NCBI GenBank assembly: GCA_038064535.1
Contig: JBBTSX010000001.1
Location: 1 to 63,744, forward strand
Reading direction: 5' to 3'
Length of the DNA stretch: 63,744 nt
Source of the DNA: Patescibacteria group bacterium
GTDB taxonomy: Bacteria; Patescibacteriota; Minisyncoccia; Phycocordibacterales; UBA2100
A program made the translations under genes and the position numbers. The notes below the pieces were generated by a model. It was not told where the DNA came from and made no database searches. It saw nothing but the letters and a program-made list of their open reading frames with translations. Positions 2,187 through 54,360 of the stretch are shown here, in pieces; within the stretch, counting starts at the first letter, position 1; the number at the start of each line of letters is the position of its first letter.

Positions 2187-3836
2187 ATGCTCCTTGCGGA
2201 GAGACTTGCGCGCGTTATCAAAGGCGACGCCCTCGACGATGCGGCGACTCGCGAAAAGTACAGTCGCGACACCAGTATTTTCGAGCGGCGACCTGAAGTC
2301 GTCGTGTTCCCCAAAGATGCCGATGACGTCGTCACGGTCGTCCGCTACGCGCACGAGGCGCGCGGGCGCGGCGAGAATGTCTCCGTCACTCCCCGCTCTG
2401 CCGGCACCGACATGACGGGCGGCGACCTTACCGATTCCATTTCACTCGTCTTCACCAAATACATGAATCACGTCGTCGAGGTCGGCGGCGATTATGCCGT
2501 CACCGAGCCGGGCGTCTATTACCGTGATTTTGAAAAAGCGACGCTCGCAAAGAACGGTAAGATACTCGCCTCCTACCCCGCATCGCGCGAAATCTGCGCG
2601 ATGGGCGGTATTGTGTCCAATAATTCCGGCGGCGAGCTCACGCTCCGGTACGGGAAAACCAACGACTACGTCCGCGAACTCGACGTCGTACTCTCCGACG
2701 GTTCGCAAATTACCGCACATCCGCTTTCCGCCGCCGAACTCGCCGAGAAAGAGCGCGAACAGACCTTTGAAGGAGAGATTTACCGCAAACTGCATGCGCT
2801 CATCGATGCTCATGCGACCGAGATTGAGGCCGCGCGACCGAATGTGACTAAAAATTCAGCAGGGTATGCACTCTGGAACGTGACGGACAGAAAACATGGG
2901 ACGTTCGACCTCACGCAGCTTTTTTGCGGCGCACAGGGCACGCTCGGCATCATCACCAAAGAAAAGCTCGGCCTCGTGAAGCTCAAGGAAAAGCGCGCAA
3001 TGCTCGTGATATTTCTCACCGACATCGGTATATTGCCGGAGATTGTGCGCCGCGTGATGAAATTCAAACCCGAATCGTTTGAATCCTACGATGACCAGAC
3101 CTTCAGTCTCGCGGTGAAATTTATCCCGCAAATAATCAGTCATGTAGGCTTTTTCAAAATGATTGCCCTCGGCTTCGCATTCCTGCCCGAAGTGTGGCTC
3201 GCGCTCACCGGCGGGATTCCCAAGCTCGTTTTGATGGCTGAATTTGCCGAAGACACCGCGGAAGAAGCATTCGAGGTCGCAAAACAGGCACGTGCCGAGC
3301 TCGACGGTATGGCGGTTCGTACAAAGATAGCGCGAAGCGAAGCGCAGACCGCAAAGTATTGGACCATCCGCCGCGAAAGTTTCAGTTTGCTGCGCAAAAA
3401 TCTCCGCGGGATGTTCGCGGCACCGTTCATAGACGACATTGTCGTGCATCCCGACGACTACCCGACATTTCTTCCGGAGTTGCATGAGCTTATCGAAGGT
3501 CACCGCTTCATTTACACGATTGCGGGGCACATCGGCGACGGCAATTTCCACATCATTCCGCTGGAACATATGGACAACCCCGCCGCACGCGCCGAGATAA
3601 CGGACCTGATGCCCAAGGTGTTCGCACTCGTCGCAAAATACAAGGGCTCTATCACCGGCGAACACAACGACGGAATCATCCGCACGCCGTATTTGCCTAT
3701 TATGTTCGGTGACAAGATGTGCGGGCTTTTTGCGGAAGTGAAGAGCATCTTCGACCCGCTCGGTGTTTTGAACCCAGGCAAAAAAACCGGCGGCACCATA
3801 GAAGACATCAAGCGAAGCATGATTACGCACGCATGA
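2187..3836 (+). CDS. FAD-binding oxidoreductase (GlcD / D-lactate dehydrogenase-like FAD-linked oxidase)
   Basis: 549 aa; N-terminal FAD-binding PCMH-type region (VVVFPKDADDVVTVVRYAHE...TPRSAGTDMTGG) and C-terminal FAD-oxidase region (GSITGEHNDGIIRTPY...DPLGVLNPGK). Confidence 0.88.
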   Translation: MLLAERLARVIKGDALDDAATREKYSRDTSIFERRPEVVVFPKDADDVVTVVRYAHEARGRGENVSVTPRSAGTDMTGGDLTDSISLVFTKYMNHVVEVGGDYAVTEPGVYYRDFEKATLAKNGKILASYPASREICAMGGIVSNNSGGELTLRYGKTNDYVRELDVVLSDGSQITAHPLSAAELAEKEREQTFEGEIYRKLHALIDAHATEIEAARPNVTKNSAGYALWNVTDRKHGTFDLTQLFCGAQGTLGIITKEKLGLVKLKEKRAMLVIFLTDIGILPEIVRRVMKFKPESFESYDDQTFSLAVKFIPQIISHVGFFKMIALGFAFLPEVWLALTGGIPKLVLMAEFAEDTAEEAFEVAKQARAELDGMAVRTKIARSEAQTAKYWTIRRESFSLLRKNLRGMFAAPFIDDIVVHPDDYPTFLPELHELIEGHRFIYTIAGHIGDGNFHIIPLEHMDNPAARAEITDLMPKVFALVAKYKGSITGEHNDGIIRTPYLPIMFGDKMCGLFAEVKSIFDPLGVLNPGKKTGGTIEDIKRSMITHA

Positions 3837-6372: not shown

Positions 6373-6888
6373 ATGACAAATCCGATATTGGAGGCCGAAA
6401 AAGCCCTGCACATCGAAGATGTGGACCGCGCGTTCCTTCTCAAGGTGGTCCAGCCCTCGTTGGTCGGCCTTATCGACGGCTCCATCTCCACGCTCGCCCC
6501 CCTCTTTGCGGCGGCGTTCGCGAGCCACGACCCGCACATCACGTTCCTCGTCGGCACGGCCGCGGCCATCGGCGCCGCCATCTCGATGGCTTTCGCGGAG
6601 GGACTATCCGACACGGGCGAACACACGGGGCGCGGTCACCCCGCCATTCGCGGCTCCATCGTCGGTGCGGCGACTTTCATCGGCGGTATCTTCCACACGC
6701 TTCCCTTCCTCGTCCCCGATTTGAACACTGCTCTCACGCTCGCGTATATCGTCGTGGCAGTGGAGTTGATTGCCATCAGCTACATTCGATTCCACTACTT
6801 TAAACTCAGTTTTTGGTCGTCTATCGCGCAAGTGCTCTTTGGTGGCGTACTTGTATTTCTCGCCGGTATCCTCATCGGCAGCGCATGA
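6373..6888 (+). CDS. VIT1/CCC1 (DUF125) family membrane protein, putative Fe/Mn transporter
   Basis: LVGLIDGSISTLAPLFAAAF...AFAEGLSD...hydrophobic C-terminal helices; ATG at 6373. Confidence 0.75.
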   Translation: MTNPILEAEKALHIEDVDRAFLLKVVQPSLVGLIDGSISTLAPLFAAAFASHDPHITFLVGTAAAIGAAISMAFAEGLSDTGEHTGRGHPAIRGSIVGAATFIGGIFHTLPFLVPDLNTALTLAYIVVAVELIAISYIRFHYFKLSFWSSIAQVLFGGVLVFLAGILIGSA

Positions 6889-6917
6889 TGCGGCGCCCTC
6901 TTGGCGCCGCTCGTAAA

Positions 6918-7625
6918 CTAATGATGTTTCTTCGCGCCGCACCTGCAACCATGCGGACGAATGAACTCGTCGAAATACTCATCGCCATAGTCGATGGTTA
7001 TCTCCTCTCCCTCCGTAATCTTTTTAATGGCAGAAATGATGATGCGGCCGCCTGCCTGCCGCGCCCCTGTCTGCGTGCTACGCACAGGCAGGCGACCGGC
7101 TTTTATTTCTCGCTTAATCCACTTTCGGCCAAACCCGGTTTTCAACCACTTTTCTCTGGCAACTGCCTCCTCACGACTAGAGTATTCTTCCGAATGAACT
7201 ATGCCGCGTGGTCTGTACTTTGAAGTGTACTCAGCGCCTCTGCCAGTGGTATGCTCGTTCCACCTTTTCAACAAATTTTGGGTTTGGCCGATATACATCG
7301 CTCCATTTTCACATTCGATGACATAAACAAAAAAGGTATTCGGTCGCGGCGCAGGCAGGTCAACGATTTCCGCTTCGGTGTTGGGGTCGCAGGAATGATT
7401 GATGTATCGGGCGACACTGCCACCGTGCTCAGCGTCTATCGTCCATTCATCGTCTATTTCAAACAGGTATTTGCTTTTCATCGCATCTGCCTCTTTAGAG
7501 TCAACTTTTGTACCCGTGTATTCGGCAACGAACGCCCCTTTCTTGATATCGGCATCCGCAAAAAGCCCCTGCCCTTTGCCGGAGCTGGCATCTTTCACTG
7601 TCACAGACGGGGCTGTCGCTTCCAT
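6918..7625 (-). CDS. SET-domain protein with an in-frame GIY-YIG (URI/YhbQ-like) nuclease domain inserted in SET-C
   Basis: SET motifs GKGQGLFA...ARYINHSCDPN and GGRIIISAIKKITEGEEITIDYG...CRCG are split by FFVYVIECENGAMYIGQTQNLLKRWNEHTTGRGAEYTSKYRP...EEAVAREKWLK (GIY-YIG). Confidence 0.8.
   Translation of the reverse strand: MEATAPSVTVKDASSGKGQGLFADADIKKGAFVAEYTGTKVDSKEADAMKSKYLFEIDDEWTIDAEHGGSVARYINHSCDPNTEAEIVDLPAPRPNTFFVYVIECENGAMYIGQTQNLLKRWNEHTTGRGAEYTSKYRPRGIVHSEEYSSREEAVAREKWLKTGFGRKWIKREIKAGRLPVRSTQTGARQAGGRIIISAIKKITEGEEITIDYGDEYFDEFIRPHGCRCGAKKHH
7051..7092. repeat. GC-rich family D hairpin (CCTGCCTG ... CAGGCAGG) inside the SET gene
   Basis: Arms 7051..7058 / 7085..7092 are complementary; encodes the linker RLPVRSTQTGARQAG; a third arm GCAGGCAGG sits at 7351..7359 on the other side of the GIY-YIG module. 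Confidence 0.7.
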
Positions 7626-7648
7626 ACGGCGTGAGTATAATACGGGTA

Positions 7649-8911
7649 ATGACAAAACGGGAGAAGCTCTCTACCGAAAGCTACAAAGGGGTCCGGGATT
7701 TTTACCCCGAAGACCAATTCCTCCAGCGCTACCTTTTCGAGCACATGGAACGCGTCTGCGAGCTGTTCGGCTACGAAGAGTACAGCGCGAGCATCCTTGA
7801 GCACTCCGAGCTCTACCGGAGCAAGACTTCGGAAGAAATCGTAAACGAGCAGACGTACACCTTTACCGACCGCGGGAATCGCGAGGTGACGCTCCGTCCC
7901 GAGATGACGCCGACACTCGCGCGCATGATTGCCGCGCGCTCGCGCGACATTCCCCTCCCTGCGCGCTGGTACACTATCGCCAATGTCTTCCGCTACGAGC
8001 GCCCGCAGCGCGGCCGTCTGCGCGAGCACTGGCAGCTCAACGCCGACCTCGTCGGCGCCGAAGGCGTGGAAGCTGATGCGGAGATAATCGCGGTCGCGCA
8101 CGGCGTGATGCGAAGCCTCGGTGCTGAAGAGCGTGATTTCGAGATACGTGTTTCCGACCGCCGCATTCTCGACTCTATCTATCAATCCGTCGGCATCGCC
8201 AAGGAATATGCCGCCGACATTACGCGCCTCCTCGACCGTCGCGCGAAAGTGGACGACTTCGAGAAGCGCCTCACCGATATGATCGCTCACGAAGAAAAAG
8301 CCGTGAAGCTCATCGAAGAATTGGAACGCGTGACATCGAGCGCCTATCTCGAAGAGCTGCGCATCACTCTCGAGCGCATGGGCGTCCACAACATGATAGT
8401 GGACACGTCCATCACGCGCGGGTTTGACTACTACACGGGCATGATATTCGAGGTGTACGACACTCACGAAGACAATCGCCGCTCGCTCTTCGGCGGCGGT
8501 CGCTATGACAACCTGCTCGGTATGTTCGGCGGCGAAAGCATTCCCGCCGTCGGCTTCGGCATGGGCGACGTGACCGCGCGGGACTTCCTCGAGGCTCACA
8601 ACCTCCTTCCCGAGTACGCACCGGCGACCGAGCTCATGCTCTGCGTCGTTGACAAAGAATCGAGCGCTCACGCCATCCAGCTCGCGCAGGCACTCCGGCG
8701 CGAAGATGTCACCGTCGCTATCAATTTCTCAGGCAAACGCATCGGCGACCAAATCCGTCAGGCCGACAAAATGAAAGTACCGTTCGTTATCGCCATCGGT
8801 GAAAAAGAGCGTGTTGAGGGCCGCTATGCTATCAAAAATCTCGCAACCGGCGCCGAAATGACGCTTCCGGCGGACCGCATCGCGGAACACCTTTTTAGCA
8901 GTCTCGGGTGA
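7649..8911 (+). CDS. hisS: histidine--tRNA ligase
   Basis: YKGVRDFYPED, FRYERPQRGRLREHWQ, GGGRYDNL motifs; TATAAT (7636..7641)-N7-ATG 7649 supports the start. Confidence 0.92.
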   Translation: MTKREKLSTESYKGVRDFYPEDQFLQRYLFEHMERVCELFGYEEYSASILEHSELYRSKTSEEIVNEQTYTFTDRGNREVTLRPEMTPTLARMIAARSRDIPLPARWYTIANVFRYERPQRGRLREHWQLNADLVGAEGVEADAEIIAVAHGVMRSLGAEERDFEIRVSDRRILDSIYQSVGIAKEYAADITRLLDRRAKVDDFEKRLTDMIAHEEKAVKLIEELERVTSSAYLEELRITLERMGVHNMIVDTSITRGFDYYTGMIFEVYDTHEDNRRSLFGGGRYDNLLGMFGGESIPAVGFGMGDVTARDFLEAHNLLPEYAPATELMLCVVDKESSAHAIQLAQALRREDVTVAINFSGKRIGDQIRQADKMKVPFVIAIGEKERVEGRYAIKNLATGAEMTLPADRIAEHLFSSLG

Positions 8912-9004
8912 GTGTCGTAAGCGTTGTACACGTTGTAAACGTTCAAATCGCCGATATTTTCCCTTGCATAAAACGAATAGAACGTCTATAACGACTTGAA
9001 CGTC

Positions 9005-46644: not shown

Positions 46645-48738
46645 ATGAACAAAAACTACAGTAACAATTCCGACGCCCTCTCTCACGGGGCAAGCCCTGA
46701 ATTTTCCAACAAAGGCCTGCCTGCGTCGGGCGAATACGCGCGGCAGGCAGGCGGCGCCTACGTACCGGCCCCGCAGGGGCGCGGCCAAAGCGGACCCACG
46801 CGACACAGCCCTTCACGAGGAACCCCCTCGCGCCTGCCTGCGTCGCACGCGTCGCCTGCCCGCGCGGAGCACGCAGGCGGGCGGCAGGCAGGCCACGGCC
46901 CACAGCGTGAACCCCAGCGCGGACCTGCGCGAGGACGCCCCGGTAGCGCACCGCGCCGCCGACCGCTCCACCTGCGACCTGCGCGCCCGCCCCGCGGACG
47001 CACGAAGGTCGAGCATCAGGCTCCGACGAGCCGCTCTATGCACGCCGGCCCCGCCATCCCGCCGCCCGCGCCCGACACGGTGCGCATCATTCCGCTCGGC
47101 GGCGTCGAAGAAGTCGGACGGAACATGACCGCCGTCGAATTCGGCAACGACATCTTTATCCTCGACTGCGGATTCCAATTCAGCGAGGACGAAACACCGG
47201 GCATCGATTACATCCTTCCGAATACAGGTTATCTCGAAGAGCGTCGCGACAAAATCCGCGGTCTCATCATCTCGCACGGCCACCTCGACCACATCGGCGG
47301 TATCCCCTACATCCTCGACCGCATCGGCAATCCGACCATCTACACTCGCAAGCTCACGGGCAAAATGATTCAGAAGCGCCAAGAGGAATTTGCACAAACG
47401 ATTCCCGTCACCATTCGCGAAGTCGAAAAGGACGAAGTGATAAAGCTCGGCGCGGCGACCATCCGCTTCTTCGGCGTGACGCACACCGTGCCGGATTCTA
47501 TGGGTATCATCATTGAGACACCGTACGGCGACGTCGTATTCACCGGCGACATCAAGCTCAATCACGAGAACGGCGAACCTTCCGACGAAGAAAAACGCGA
47601 GTTCGGCATCTTCAAAGAGCGCAAAGTACTCGCGCTCCTTATGGACTCGACCAACGTCTGGCAGCCGGGCTTCTCCATTCCCGAGAGCACGGTGTACCGC
47701 ACACTTGAGAAAATCATCGAAGAGTCTAAAGGCCGCCTCATCATCGCGATGTTCGCCTCGCACCTTGAGCGTCTTATCCGCGTCGTGCACTTCGCCGAGC
47801 AGTACGGCAAGAAAATCGTCATCGACGGCCGCTCAATGCGCACCAACATCGAAATAGCGCGCGAGATAGGCCTCATCAAGTACAAAGACGACACCGTCAT
47901 CGCTGTCGAGAACATGGGCCAATATCCCAAAGAGCGCATCATCATCCTCGCGACCGGTGCGCAAGGCGACGAATTCGCCAGTCTCGCCCGCATAGGCAAC
48001 AAATCGCACAAGTACATCCGCCTCGAGCCGACCGACACCATCGTCCTCTCCTCGTCGGTCATTCCGGGCAACGAACGCGCCGTGCAGAAGCTCAAAGACA
48101 ATCTCTCGCGTCAGGGCGCGCATATTATCACCTACCACGCCTCCGACGTGCACGCCTCAGGTCACGGCAATCGCGAGGAAGCGGCATGGATACACAAGCA
48201 AATCCGGCCGAAATTCTTCATCCCCGTCCACGGTTATCACTACATGTTGCGCGTGCACGGCGACCTCGCCGTCGAGATGGGCGTCCAGCCGCAAAATGTC
48301 TGCATCCCCGACAACTCTTCTGTCGTTGAAATAATCGCCGGCGAGAAAATCGCGAAGCACGCAATCAAGGCTCCGTCCGAATTGCGCGTGGTGGAAGGCC
48401 AGACCGTCTCTGAACTGAGCGATGTCCTCATGCGCGACCGCAAGGCGCTCGGACAGGAGGGATTCTGCGTCGTCGTCGCGACGGTAGACCGCCGCACGGG
48501 CAAGCTCCACAAATCCCCCGACATCATTTCCCGCGGATTCGTGTACCTGCGTGACAACAAAGAGCTGATGGATCAGACGCGCCTCATCATCCGCAAATCA
48601 GTAGAGACCTCGATGCGCAATCCGCGTGCCGCAGACCTCGACGTCGCCCGCGACGACCTCGCCGAAGCCGTCTCCCGCTTCTTGCTGCAGCGCACCATGA
48701 AGCGTCCCATCGTGATTCCGGTAATAGTTAGCATCTAA
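46645..48738 (+). CDS. rnj: ribonuclease J (metallo-beta-lactamase / beta-CASP) with Arg/Pro-rich N-terminal extension
   Basis: VRIIPLGGVEEVGRNMTAVEF...ISHGHLDHIGG...; canonical-length product would start at ATG 47038; 46645..47037 is GC-rich repeat-derived sequence open in several frames. Confidence 0.88.
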   Translation: MNKNYSNNSDALSHGASPEFSNKGLPASGEYARQAGGAYVPAPQGRGQSGPTRHSPSRGTPSRLPASHASPARAEHAGGRQAGHGPQREPQRGPARGRPGSAPRRRPLHLRPARPPRGRTKVEHQAPTSRSMHAGPAIPPPAPDTVRIIPLGGVEEVGRNMTAVEFGNDIFILDCGFQFSEDETPGIDYILPNTGYLEERRDKIRGLIISHGHLDHIGGIPYILDRIGNPTIYTRKLTGKMIQKRQEEFAQTIPVTIREVEKDEVIKLGAATIRFFGVTHTVPDSMGIIIETPYGDVVFTGDIKLNHENGEPSDEEKREFGIFKERKVLALLMDSTNVWQPGFSIPESTVYRTLEKIIEESKGRLIIAMFASHLERLIRVVHFAEQYGKKIVIDGRSMRTNIEIAREIGLIKYKDDTVIAVENMGQYPKERIIILATGAQGDEFASLARIGNKSHKYIRLEPTDTIVLSSSVIPGNERAVQKLKDNLSRQGAHIITYHASDVHASGHGNREEAAWIHKQIRPKFFIPVHGYHYMLRVHGDLAVEMGVQPQNVCIPDNSSVVEIIAGEKIAKHAIKAPSELRVVEGQTVSELSDVLMRDRKALGQEGFCVVVATVDRRTGKLHKSPDIISRGFVYLRDNKELMDQTRLIIRKSVETSMRNPRAADLDVARDDLAEAVSRFLLQRTMKRPIVIPVIVSI
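46715..46752. repeat. family D GC-rich hairpin (GCCTGCCTGC ... GCAGGCAGGC)
   Basis: 10-bp complementary arms inside the rnj 5' extension. Confidence 0.75.
46832..46893. repeat. family D GC-rich hairpin, longer copy
   Basis: Same arms GCCTGCCTGCGTCG (46832..) and CGGCAGGCAGGC (..46893) as at 46715..46752. Confidence 0.75.
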
Positions 48739-49099: not shown

Positions 49100-49978
49100 T
49101 TAAGAGACACGCCACTTCCCTTTTTCTTTCACGATAAGCCCGTCGCGCTCTAGCCCCGCCAGAGCCTTTTGAACTATTCTCTTATTCGTGCGAATTAGAG
49201 AATAAACCTCATTCTGTGAATGGGCACCATTCACACCGAGTTCGCGAAGAACTGCGCCGCGGACTTGGCGCAGACTGCCTTTGAATTTTGATTGTTTTGT
49301 ATAGTGCGCACTTCGGCGATTGTTGCGAACGCCCGAACGTTTCAAATGCGCGCCGTAGTCCATGAGTGCCCAGTGCCACGTCCTCGGGTCCTGCCCTTCT
49401 GCCGCCTTTTGCGCCAACGGCAAAATCTCCGCATCCGTTATGCTAGTCTTTTGCAAAACACTAGAATAGAAATGGTGGATGTACGCCGCCCGGATGTTGG
49501 TCTCGATAAGGATGTCGGGTTCGTTGAACGCGAACACTTTGACCGCCGCCTCTGTATAGGGTCCTATGCCGGTACATTTTAACAAGCCGGTCGGCTTGTT
49601 AAAATGTACTCCGTTTTTGGTGAGGATTTTTGCAGCGTCGTGCAAATACTTGGCACGCCTGTTGTAGCCGAGCCCGCTCCACACTTTAAGCACATCTGAA
49701 AGCGGGGCTTTTGCCAATGCTTTTGCAGTCGGAAATGCCTGTAAAAATTCTTTGTACTTCCCTATTACTCGCGGCACCTGCGTCTGCTGCAGCATCATTT
49801 CGGAAACGAGAATGCGGTACGTGTCTTTGGTCTTGCGCCACGGCAGGTCGTGTCTCCCCTCTTTTTTCCAATATCTCCACACGGTTGAACGAAAAGCGCG
49901 CAAGCGTGCGGCAGGTATTTTATGAAGAACTTCGCCAGCTTTGTCGGTTGAGTCGGTCGCGGTGATACATGTACGCAT
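49100..49978 (-). CDS. HhH-GPD DNA glycosylase, MutY/adenine glycosylase-like
   Basis: LPWRKTKDTYRILVSEMMLQQTQV...WSGLGYNRRAKYLHDAAK...CTGIGPYTEAA. Confidence 0.78.
   Translation of the reverse strand: MRTCITATDSTDKAGEVLHKIPAARLRAFRSTVWRYWKKEGRHDLPWRKTKDTYRILVSEMMLQQTQVPRVIGKYKEFLQAFPTAKALAKAPLSDVLKVWSGLGYNRRAKYLHDAAKILTKNGVHFNKPTGLLKCTGIGPYTEAAVKVFAFNEPDILIETNIRAAYIHHFYSSVLQKTSITDAEILPLAQKAAEGQDPRTWHWALMDYGAHLKRSGVRNNRRSAHYTKQSKFKGSLRQVRGAVLRELGVNGAHSQNEVYSLIRTNKRIVQKALAGLERDGLIVKEKGKWRVS
49572..49609. repeat. family C 38-bp palindrome GTACATTTTAACAAGCCG|GT|CGGCTTGTTAAAATGTAC (inside the glycosylase CDS)
   Basis: Perfect palindrome; homologous copy at 54164..54201 with compensatory differences. 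Confidence 0.88.
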
Positions 49979-54084: not shown

Positions 54085-54163
54085 ATAAAGGATGACGCTC
54101 TGATGATACACCTTATTACGGACGACATAGAGCGAGCGAAACGACACTTAGCTTCGAGATAGA

Positions 54164-54201
54164 GTACATTATAACAGGCCGGTCGGCTCGTTATAATGTA
54201 C
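54164..54201. repeat. family C 38-bp palindrome GTACATTATAACAGGCCG|GT|CGGCTCGTTATAATGTAC (divergent intergenic region)
   Basis: Perfect palindrome; contains TATAAT reading outward on both strands. Confidence 0.88.
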
Positions 54202-54360
54202 TGCTCCGAGGAGTCCGAAAACCGGCAACCGGTTTACAGGTGCGCAACAGCACCCCTTCTGGTAGTATTGCCGGAACTTGTATGGCGGCTAGCGAAAAGC
54301 GGAATGAGGACAAAGTTCTCATTTCCTTTGAGCGAAGACGACATATGGGCGATAGCGAAT

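Follow-up and report, generated by a model that had tools for sequence, protein, structure and literature searches.

The 63,744-nt window analysed here (positions 1 to 63,744 of contig JBBTSX010000001.1, assembly GCA_038064535.1, from a Patescibacteria group bacterium) contains a gene for a SET-domain methyltransferase that is split in frame by 309 nt encoding a complete GIY-YIG nuclease domain. We consider it likely, with a probability of roughly 0.8, that this SET gene was invaded by a selfish in-frame GIY-YIG element which is expressed via read-through from its host, with a mobility chemistry that we infer from sequence. The unit ends in inverted repeats (5'-CCTGCCTGCGCCG...CGGCAGGCAGG-3'), and the element is apparently widespread and undescribed as a mobile element; no such description was found in the full-text literature, a coverage that leaves out subscription journals, and a prior description is possible.

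Relatives of the SET gene that lack the insert fix its edges to the base. A protein search returned many insert-free SET proteins of 129–140 amino acids (aa), several of them 85–92% identical to the window's protein, P0001, and one named as from Candidatus Kaiserbacteria. The closest insert-free orthologues (89–92% aa identity) have the common synteny HisRS-SET-VIT1-DsbA-DsbB, and the contigs with the 92% relative P0003 show the window's gene order of HisRS, SET, VIT1-like, DsbA-like and DsbB. In a DNA alignment with such empty alleles, a single block of exactly 309 nt is present in the window only. The best empty allele, P0004, reads ATC GTT GAC GGT CGC (IVDGR) where the window reads ATC GTT GA[C CTG CCT ... 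CAG GCA GG]C GGC CGC; taking out the bracketed element leaves GTT GA^C GGC CGC, and the window's reconstructed empty site is GAAATCGTTGAC/GGCCGCATC. The Asp codon is cut after its second base and host bases are neither duplicated nor deleted. No target-site duplication is seen in the comparison with P0004, the filled and empty alleles differing by the element alone. The first base of the element is the third of a codon (C of GAC) and its last is the second of another (GG of GGC); in the protein it covers aa 90–192, taking in a single base from codon 89 and two bases from codon 192. A sequence-only reading of the window had put the insert at about 7053 to 7361, between IV and GGR. The 309-nt insert is real and its position in the turn was right, but the exact span is 7051 to 7359 and the empty allele is IVD/GR, as in P0004, not IV/GGR, as in P0003. 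A first edge estimate of our own via P0003 (GT/A GGC, with an apparent extra TGA) was likewise dropped, P0004 and the family-wide phase rule giving GA^C.

The same site is filled a second time in P0002, a divergent SET gene with a similar neighbourhood and 68% nt identity, where the unit lies at the same Asp-Gly position and is 27 nt shorter; P0003 to P0011 are empty at this site. The P0002 module is 74% identical to that of the window at the aa level, which makes it no closer to the window's than the modules borne by MsrB. At four-fold degenerate sites, P0001 and P0002 are 37–50% identical in the module vs. 32% in the flanks, figures that favour neither a horizontal nor a vertical origin of the two copies.

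The host open reading frame (ORF) encodes 235 aa from its ATG, or 245 aa if the TTG at 7655 is the start. The Pfam SET family (PF00856) matches P0001 with an E value of 4e-22 (79 bits) in two separate stretches. The NHSCDPN, DYGDEYF and CRCG motifs of P0001 line up with 71 insert-free orthologues, so that the canonical SET blocks recognised in the sequence-only reading, including the post-SET Cys cluster, are indeed there. AlphaFold2 (AF2) was run on two separate alignments, one covering the module and one a clean SET alignment, since mixed alignments misplaced the non-homologous flanks. With the clean SET alignment, the SET halves have predicted local distance difference test (pLDDT) values of 72–96, and strands 83–88 and 194–199 flank the insert. 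The module (aa 90–175) folds by itself with a pLDDT of 89–98 on the module-covering alignment, and the peptide of a nested hairpin (aa 184–190; see below) is disordered. The best Foldseek matches are MLL1 SET-domain chains, and the UPF0213 protein 1zg2 is also retrieved. The models agree with a SET fold that closes around an independent nuclease domain pushed out of a beta-turn, and either domain may have kept its activity.

The Pfam GIY-YIG family (PF01541) matches P0001 with an E value of 1.7e-15 and 57.5 bits against a cut-off of 22.6, and the nearest solved structures by profile are the UPF0213 proteins 1ywl (3.5e-14) and 1zg2 (4e-14), the latter being nearest by Foldseek as well. Profile, motifs and the modelled alpha/beta fold place the module in the GIY-YIG superfamily, for which DNA cleavage is predicted. 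The window copy holds every family-invariant residue (Y12, Y22-I-G, T26, R32, H36, E57, R68-E69 and the basic LKTGFGRKW segment), and FVY(12), YIG(22–24), R32, H36 and E69 are invariant or nearly so family-wide. This bears out the earlier call of a complete nuclease domain. Between the P0001 and P0002 modules, codon positions 1 and 2 are 84% identical vs. 54% at position 3, a comparison that shows purifying selection on the nuclease frame. The canonical unit consists of 94 residues (LPAPRP...AGR(A/T)RQAG in 72 of 107 parsed copies), or 282 nt of DNA (5'-CCTGCCTGCGCCGCG...CGCGGCAGGCAGG-3'). Like the window element, it starts on a third and stops on a second codon position, and the frame is stop-free across both junctions in all 58 loci examined. 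The unit has neither a start nor a stop codon of its own, and because no Met is conserved in the module, the nuclease can be made only by read-through from the start of the host gene.

The terminal inverted repeats, CCTGCCTGC...GCAGGCAGG together with a second helix, are conserved at the DNA level. In a set of 51 distinct copies of 282 nt, interior four-fold third positions carry about 0–0.3 bits (Gly24 0.08, Thr26 0.04, Pro50 0.01, Ala65 0.01). The third positions of the end codons, by comparison, are near-fixed, both on the left (Pro2 CCT 2.0, Ala3 GCG 2.0, Pro4 CCG 1.5 bits) and on the right (Arg91 CGG 2.0, Gln92 CAG 2.0, Ala93 GCA 1.7 bits). Helix 1 joins nt 1–9 with 274–282 and helix 2 joins nt 14–18 with 263–267. 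Standard pairs fill 94% of cells, a figure that falls to 21–58% when the partner is slid by 1–3 columns. Pair 16–265 links the wobble base of Arg5 (CGN) with that of Gly88 (GGN) and occurs as G-C in 19 copies, A-T in 10, C-G in 5, T-A in 3 and G-T in 6, with 8 unpaired; the covariation score of 0.125 compares with 0.073 in shuffles and was reached in 0 of 500. Covariation between two wobble positions argues for a terminal stem, since protein coding is unable to yield such a pattern. At its base the stem shuts precisely on the insertion junction, a fold also obtained for the window element as single-stranded DNA. Judged from these sequence patterns, the unit ends appear to be cis-acting DNA signals beyond their use as linker codons.

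Within the window element, the octamers CCTGCCTG/CAGGCAGG lie at 7051–7058, 7085–7092 and 7352–7359, in keeping with the GC-rich inverted-repeat linkers described before. Counting both CCTGCCTG and its complement, the window has 11 octamers vs. 1.5 expected, a number reached in 0 of 100 shuffles. Lone CCTGCCTG octamers at 663, 4821, 17518 and 20563 have no inverted partner nearby; they add to the excess and are maybe remnants or chance occurrences.

Empty sites reconstructed from 51 different flanks give the target logo GA^YGR, with little conserved further out (G at –2 in 42/51, A at –1 in 40/51, C or T at +1 in 41/51 and G at +2 in 36/51), which is mostly an Asp codon followed by Gly or Glu. 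Asp-Gly stands at the turn in 37 of the 71 SET orthologues. Uninterrupted forms of recurrent host sites (HVFDDGP, PQNPSDEPAS, KEGRDYEPA) are present in the same data set and show an addition of exactly 94 residues, as in MsrB and HsdS.

The ends also occur without the nuclease. Mini-elements with CCTGCCTG...CAGGCAGG ends are found in rnj of the window and at five fetched loci. Those inside ORFs, whose hosts have 240–1082 codons, measure 27, 30, 30, 36, 36, 39 and 60 nt. They have the same codon phase as the full unit, are often preceded by GA, and encode LPA...QAG. Since every length is a multiple of three, they would be translated and not cut from the RNA. In the rnj ORF (46645 to 48738, plus strand) four octamer copies build two hairpins in frame, as the sequence-only reading had noticed (Table 1). 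Both lie in an N-terminal extension of RNase J of about 140 aa (46645 to 47070, plus strand), rich in Arg, Pro and Ala and ahead of the beta-lactamase domain, which appears to be built from GC-rich insertions.

The window element itself contains a nested 27-nt hairpin, situated in the internal loop that separates helix 1 from helix 2 in the 3' terminal repeat. A hairpin is present at the same spot in P0079, P0082, P0121 and L065, and element copies in MGMT, MsrB and other hosts have an insert of this kind there. As a side observation, 9-codon hairpins are mirror-placed in the two terminal repeats, each at the internal loop of the terminal helices (right, AGR-LPVRxTQTG-xRQAG; left, LPAP-PARASHAGG-RP), and the carriers of nested hairpins (the window, P0079, P0082, P0121, P0128, P0130, P0218 and L065) do not cluster, which suggests recurrent events.

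To what extent is the module confined to SET genes? When the insert was run with phmmer exhaustively against 1.84 billion representative sequences, 7648 matches had E<=1e-3, 361 clusters had E<=1e-10 and 33 had E<=1e-30. Nearly all are internal to proteins of 100–1100 aa, and one protein has two copies. Already in a first search, a middle part of about 100 aa was found at 60–69% identity inside MsrB, the DNA-binding domain of MGMT, NUDIX proteins and type I restriction S subunits. When 113 host proteins were scanned with Pfam, GIY-YIG was present in 113/113 and the type I specificity domain (HsdS) in 67, the rest being spread over 35 other families, for at least 37 host families overall. Other hosts include HsdM, HsdR, trigger factor, TatD, QueC, ArgRS, cobalamin adenosyltransferase, TfoX and PD-(D/E)XK proteins. 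Type I restriction specificity genes are the main home of the element, with the SET gene as an incidental host. When one genome per species was scanned, the module was present in 167 genomes, from phyla that include Saccharibacteria and other Patescibacteria, Desulfobacterota, Nitrospirota, Planctomycetota, Verrucomicrobiota, Acidobacteriota, Chloroflexota, Bacteroidota and Omnitrophota. Recurrently occupied sites are that of SET (P0001/P0002), HVFDD^GP in MsrB, HRVxxSD^G in MGMT and PQDPND^EPAS in HsdS. The proposal that a nuclease module flanked by terminal inverted repeats had entered the gene in frame, in the manner of an intein-less homing element or of a palindromic element, is therefore supported from four sides: insert-free orthologues in the same synteny, unrelated hosts, ends conserved as DNA and a covarying stem.

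Two further observations concern these hosts. Some HsdS genes have two modules, one per conserved-region junction beside the target-recognition domains (P0145; L075, at 2884–3165 plus an upstream copy). In addition, a Bacteroidota variant without the LPAP/RQAG ends lies some 300 residues into a protein of about 1150 aa, preceded by WPVCVQRTGRKS, and is possibly an old immobilised copy; it is found at L067 (Tangfeifania diversioriginum DSM 27063, a cultured strain), L071, L072, L079 and L084.

Table 1 Features of the interrupted SET gene and of the rnj mini-elements (window coordinates).
Feature	Position	Strand	Basis or remark
Host ORF, SET-domain methyltransferase split in frame by the element	6918..7625	-	ORF list, Pfam, Foldseek, AF2
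SET N-terminal part, aa 1-88 plus bases GA of split Asp89 codon	7360..7625	-	DNA alignment with empty alleles L001, L004, L085
SET C-terminal part: last base of split codon, GRIIISAIKK...CRCGAKKHH, stop	6918..7050	-	DNA alignment; AF2 strand 194-199 after insert
Inserted element, 309 nt (282-nt canonical unit plus nested 27-nt hairpin)	7051..7359	-	Filled vs. empty alignment
5' terminal inverted repeat CCTGCCTGCGCCGCGACCGA, encodes (D)LPAPRP	7340..7359	-	Nearly invariant in 51-58 loci including wobble bases; pairs with 3' end
GIY-YIG catalytic core, Pfam aa 98-164	7134..7334	-	Pfam; conserved module reaches ~7098 including basic LKTGFGRKWxKRE helix
Nested 27-nt hairpin (LPVRSTQTG), secondary insertion	7065..7091 (edges uncertain to within a few bases)	-	Missing in P0002 and in the 94-codon consensus
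3' terminal inverted repeat ...GCGCGGCAGGCAGG, encodes ARQAG	7051..7064	-	Helix 2 partner GGTCG at 7093..7097
36-nt mini-element with same ends in rnj N-terminal extension, GG^C..., encodes LPASGEYARQAG	46716..46751	+	-19.9 kcal/mol, z -4.7
60-nt in-frame mini-element of rnj (33 nt plus nested 27 nt), CG^C..., encodes LPASHASPARAEHAGGRQAG	46833..46892	+	

Taken as an invading selfish element, the insert could have arisen and persisted as follows. A canonical 282-bp unit would split a host codon (NN^N) at a preferred GA^YGR, here at the Asp-Gly turn of the SET beta-hairpin, and its SLX1/UPF0213-like nuclease would be translated as an additional domain of its host. The inverted repeats would do double duty, as DNA ends that pair at the junction and as codons for the Pro/Gly-rich linkers LPAPRP and RQAG, which would let the nuclease domain bulge from a surface loop. 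Only copies in hosts that tolerate a 94-residue bulge would persist, selection retaining insertions in tolerant loops in the one phase that yields LPAP/RQAG linkers. The nuclease, presumed to be structure-specific, may act on either or both of two substrates, GA^YGR sites and the stem or cruciform into which the ends of the element pair, and host repair or replication might then copy or move the unit. Movement would be mainly to the same site of orthologous genes, in a homing-like manner, and now and then to new genes, and the 27–60-nt mini-elements, having only the ends, would ride on the same machinery. The window copy, with its catalytic residues intact, would itself have acquired the 27-nt hairpin.

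Several points weigh against this account. The case for movement is built from sequence comparison rather than from biochemical or population data. GIY-YIG enzymes are hydrolytic, with no strand transfer known for them, which leaves the insertion chemistry unexplained. Conserved ends are unexpected for classical homing, and low copy number and site fidelity (the nearest-relative module is at the same host site in 52 of 73 cases) are unexpected for a classical transposon. Protein and phmmer searches found no near-identical copy of the window module, the best being 74% identical in aa, and the best 80 loci lie on 80 distinct contigs, three complete chromosomes among these, with no contig recurring. 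Activity looks slow, and some copies are perhaps fossils; slow movement is suggested because the window module is at most 74% identical to others and because no contig recurs among the best 80 loci. The module has no match in phage, plasmid or IMG/VR collections that would reveal a transfer vehicle: INPHARED and PLSDB gave no close match, only distant UPF0213-like genes, and IMG/VR gave nothing. A free-standing ancestor is absent from the best 80 genome loci, where copies without LPAP/RQAG ends are also inside large ORFs. Finally, the covariation is equally compatible with a stem in DNA and one in RNA, and strand asymmetry of the wobble pairs, examined with a view to this distinction, gave no clear signal.

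A bolder version of the selfish-element account holds that the unit represents a new autonomous class of "protein-embedded" transposon, in which the GIY-YIG protein, the only gene product, acts as a transposase and not as a homing enzyme and reads the stem of its own ends. The unit would insert at GA^YG with no duplication, would be expressed through host read-through alone and would mobilise the 27–60-nt mini-elements. We entertain this only tentatively. A classical transposon with terminal inverted repeats, or a miniature inverted-repeat transposable element (MITE), was rejected as an identification: inverted repeats are present, but there is no target-site duplication, GIY-YIG is the only domain (no DDE, serine or HUH enzyme) and copies look few, with one full copy in the 63.7-kb window.

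Could classical allelic homing be sufficient? Here the nuclease would cut empty alleles and recombination would copy the insert across, the ends being linker codons and transposition playing no part. The functional hallmark of a homing gene is seen in our data, one site being repeatedly filled in divergent orthologues (SET, MsrB, MGMT, HsdS) while close relatives are empty, and the absence of target-site duplications, the apparently low copy number and the 52/73 figure all point the same way. The remaining 21 of the 73 nearest relatives, however, are in a different gene or site, and the two figures together fit a site-faithful spread with occasional jumps. Moreover, the invariant synonymous end positions and the covarying wobble pair are neither explained by linker coding nor needed by a homing enzyme, unrelated host families have only the ~5-nt GA^YGR in common, which is too short for homology-driven copying, and nuclease-free mini-elements have the same ends. 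Homing alone is therefore an unlikely explanation.

The mini-elements, on the other hand, invite the idea of a passive palindromic element, a hairpin moved by a host or other enzyme or by replication errors, with the GIY-YIG domain as cargo or a decaying passenger; Rickettsia palindromic elements (RPEs) spread in frame, and no enzyme is known for them. Where synonymous sites are saturated, such a passenger would hardly keep its catalytic residues and basic C-terminal helix in 90% or more of the 113 copies, or an open frame in 58/58 loci, and we regard this explanation as improbable.

An adaptive two-domain enzyme, in which SET methyltransferase and nuclease cooperate, was the alternative offered by the sequence-only reading. 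Both domains look intact, and methyltransferase-nuclease pairings have been proposed in the GIY-YIG literature (PMC1564403). Against this, the nearest orthologues (89–92%) are insert-free in the same neighbourhood, the same module sits in MsrB, MGMT, NUDIX, trigger factor, ArgRS, QueC and other proteins with no common functional theme, and its ends are conserved at the DNA level, all of which makes a fusion selected for joint function very unlikely.

No more credible is removal of the insert before the protein works, as an intein, an intron or by ribosomal bypass. The terminal stem would bring both junctions together, and the hiding of nuclease-linked inserts has precedents in inteins and in the T4 gene 60 hop, but in-ORF mini-elements that are all 3n and full copies that are stop-free over both junctions would be needless if the insert were removed or skipped. 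Specific candidates were also rejected: no Hint family is found by Pfam at E<=1, and the insert starts with Leu and ends with Ala-Gly instead of His-Asn, with Gly as the next residue, which leaves an intein without a Cys/Ser/Thr nucleophile; for group I/II introns, an Rfam scan of 6700–7800 gave only a sub-threshold miRNA-like hairpin match. An assembly chimera or frameshift artefact can be practically dismissed, the window being probably metagenome-assembled but the exact P0001 protein being present on 5 contigs, P0002 from independent samples having the same architecture, and hundreds of other instances having base-exact junctions.

How does the proposed element relate to known systems? It resembles inteins that contain homing endonucleases in being selfish, in frame at conserved sites of host proteins, nuclease-encoding and expressed via the host gene, and in filling the same site in divergent orthologues with close relatives empty. 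Unlike these, it has no Hint domain or nucleophilic junctions, so that the insert stays in the mature protein, and it has conserved inverted-repeat ends and nuclease-less mini-elements; intein nucleases are moreover of the LAGLIDADG or HNH type, whereas that of the element is GIY-YIG. RPEs are likewise palindromes in coding genes that keep the frame and add a tolerated peptide, and the 27–60-nt mini-elements behave in this way. The likeness is one of layout, and the full-length form of our element bears a conserved nuclease, whereas RPEs encode no enzyme and no autonomous partner is known for them. IS200/IS605 insertion sequences, repetitive extragenic palindromic sequences with their associated transposases (REP/RAYT) and MITEs share hairpin ends, a short specific target, the pairing of autonomous and non-autonomous forms and, for IS200/IS605, the absence of target-site duplications. 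These systems use HUH (Y1) or DDE transposases, whereas the sole enzyme here is a hydrolytic GIY-YIG protein, translated within a host protein and with a copy number that looks low.

Closest to the module in sequence and structure are the UPF0213/YhbQ/SLX1-type GIY-YIG (URI) nucleases. SLX1 enzymes are structure-specific and cut stem-loops, junctions and branched DNA, which fits the stem formed by the ends of the element. Those nucleases are free-standing or C-terminal fusions without inverted repeats, whereas the module is embedded in host ORFs and has two additions, a basic helix (LKTGFGRKWLKRE) and the LPAPRP/RQAG ends. The one earlier mention that the literature search yielded, and a likely forerunner of our observations, is the Slx1-like GIY-YIG domain described at about residue 800 of the HsdR protein MCA0838 of Methylococcus capsulatus, which was called a very recent insertion and has no counterpart in a homologue of 80% identity (Dunin-Horkawicz et al. 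2006, PMC1564403). A module ~800 aa into a larger ORF is also found at L009 and L018, a likeness of layout only. The MCA0838 insertion, compared here by description, probably belongs to the same family as the element; it was a single case, for which no ends, target, family or mobility model were given (PMC1564403).

If the selfish-element account holds, nuclease genes would have a third lifestyle. The selfish ones known so far hide in introns or inteins and so spare the host gene, while here the nuclease would be a tolerated extra protein domain with DNA ends that double as linker codons. It would also account for hundreds of odd "fusion" annotations (HsdS-GIY-YIG, MsrB-GIY-YIG, MGMT-GIY-YIG) and urge caution in inferring function from such architectures, and it would offer a concrete route for domain insertion and loop growth in protein evolution. 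At type I specificity junctions, where target-recognition domains swap, a nuclease could drive the shuffling of specificities. Should the protein-embedded transposon reading be true, linker-like peptides and whole domains would have been added to proteins across many bacterial phyla. Self-contained, only 94 residues long and able to sit in a loop, a nuclease whose DNA stem is defined and whose target is short could be a tractable system for asking how a hydrolytic nuclease moves DNA, and possibly a tool.

Two minor features of the window and its relatives may be recorded. Near-identical palindromes, GTACATTTTAACAAGCCG and CGGCTTGTTAAAATGTAC, lie 4.6 kb apart at 49572–49609 and 54163–54202 (38 and 40 nt), one of them perfect and the other 89% complementary. 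In the neighbourhood of the SET gene, the Kaiserbacteria contigs L001–L003 have a 23S-rRNA-IVP-family gene (3344–3652) between HisRS and an RNase H-like gene; the window (at ~8911–8996) and L004 are without it, a second presence/absence difference in the same neighbourhood.

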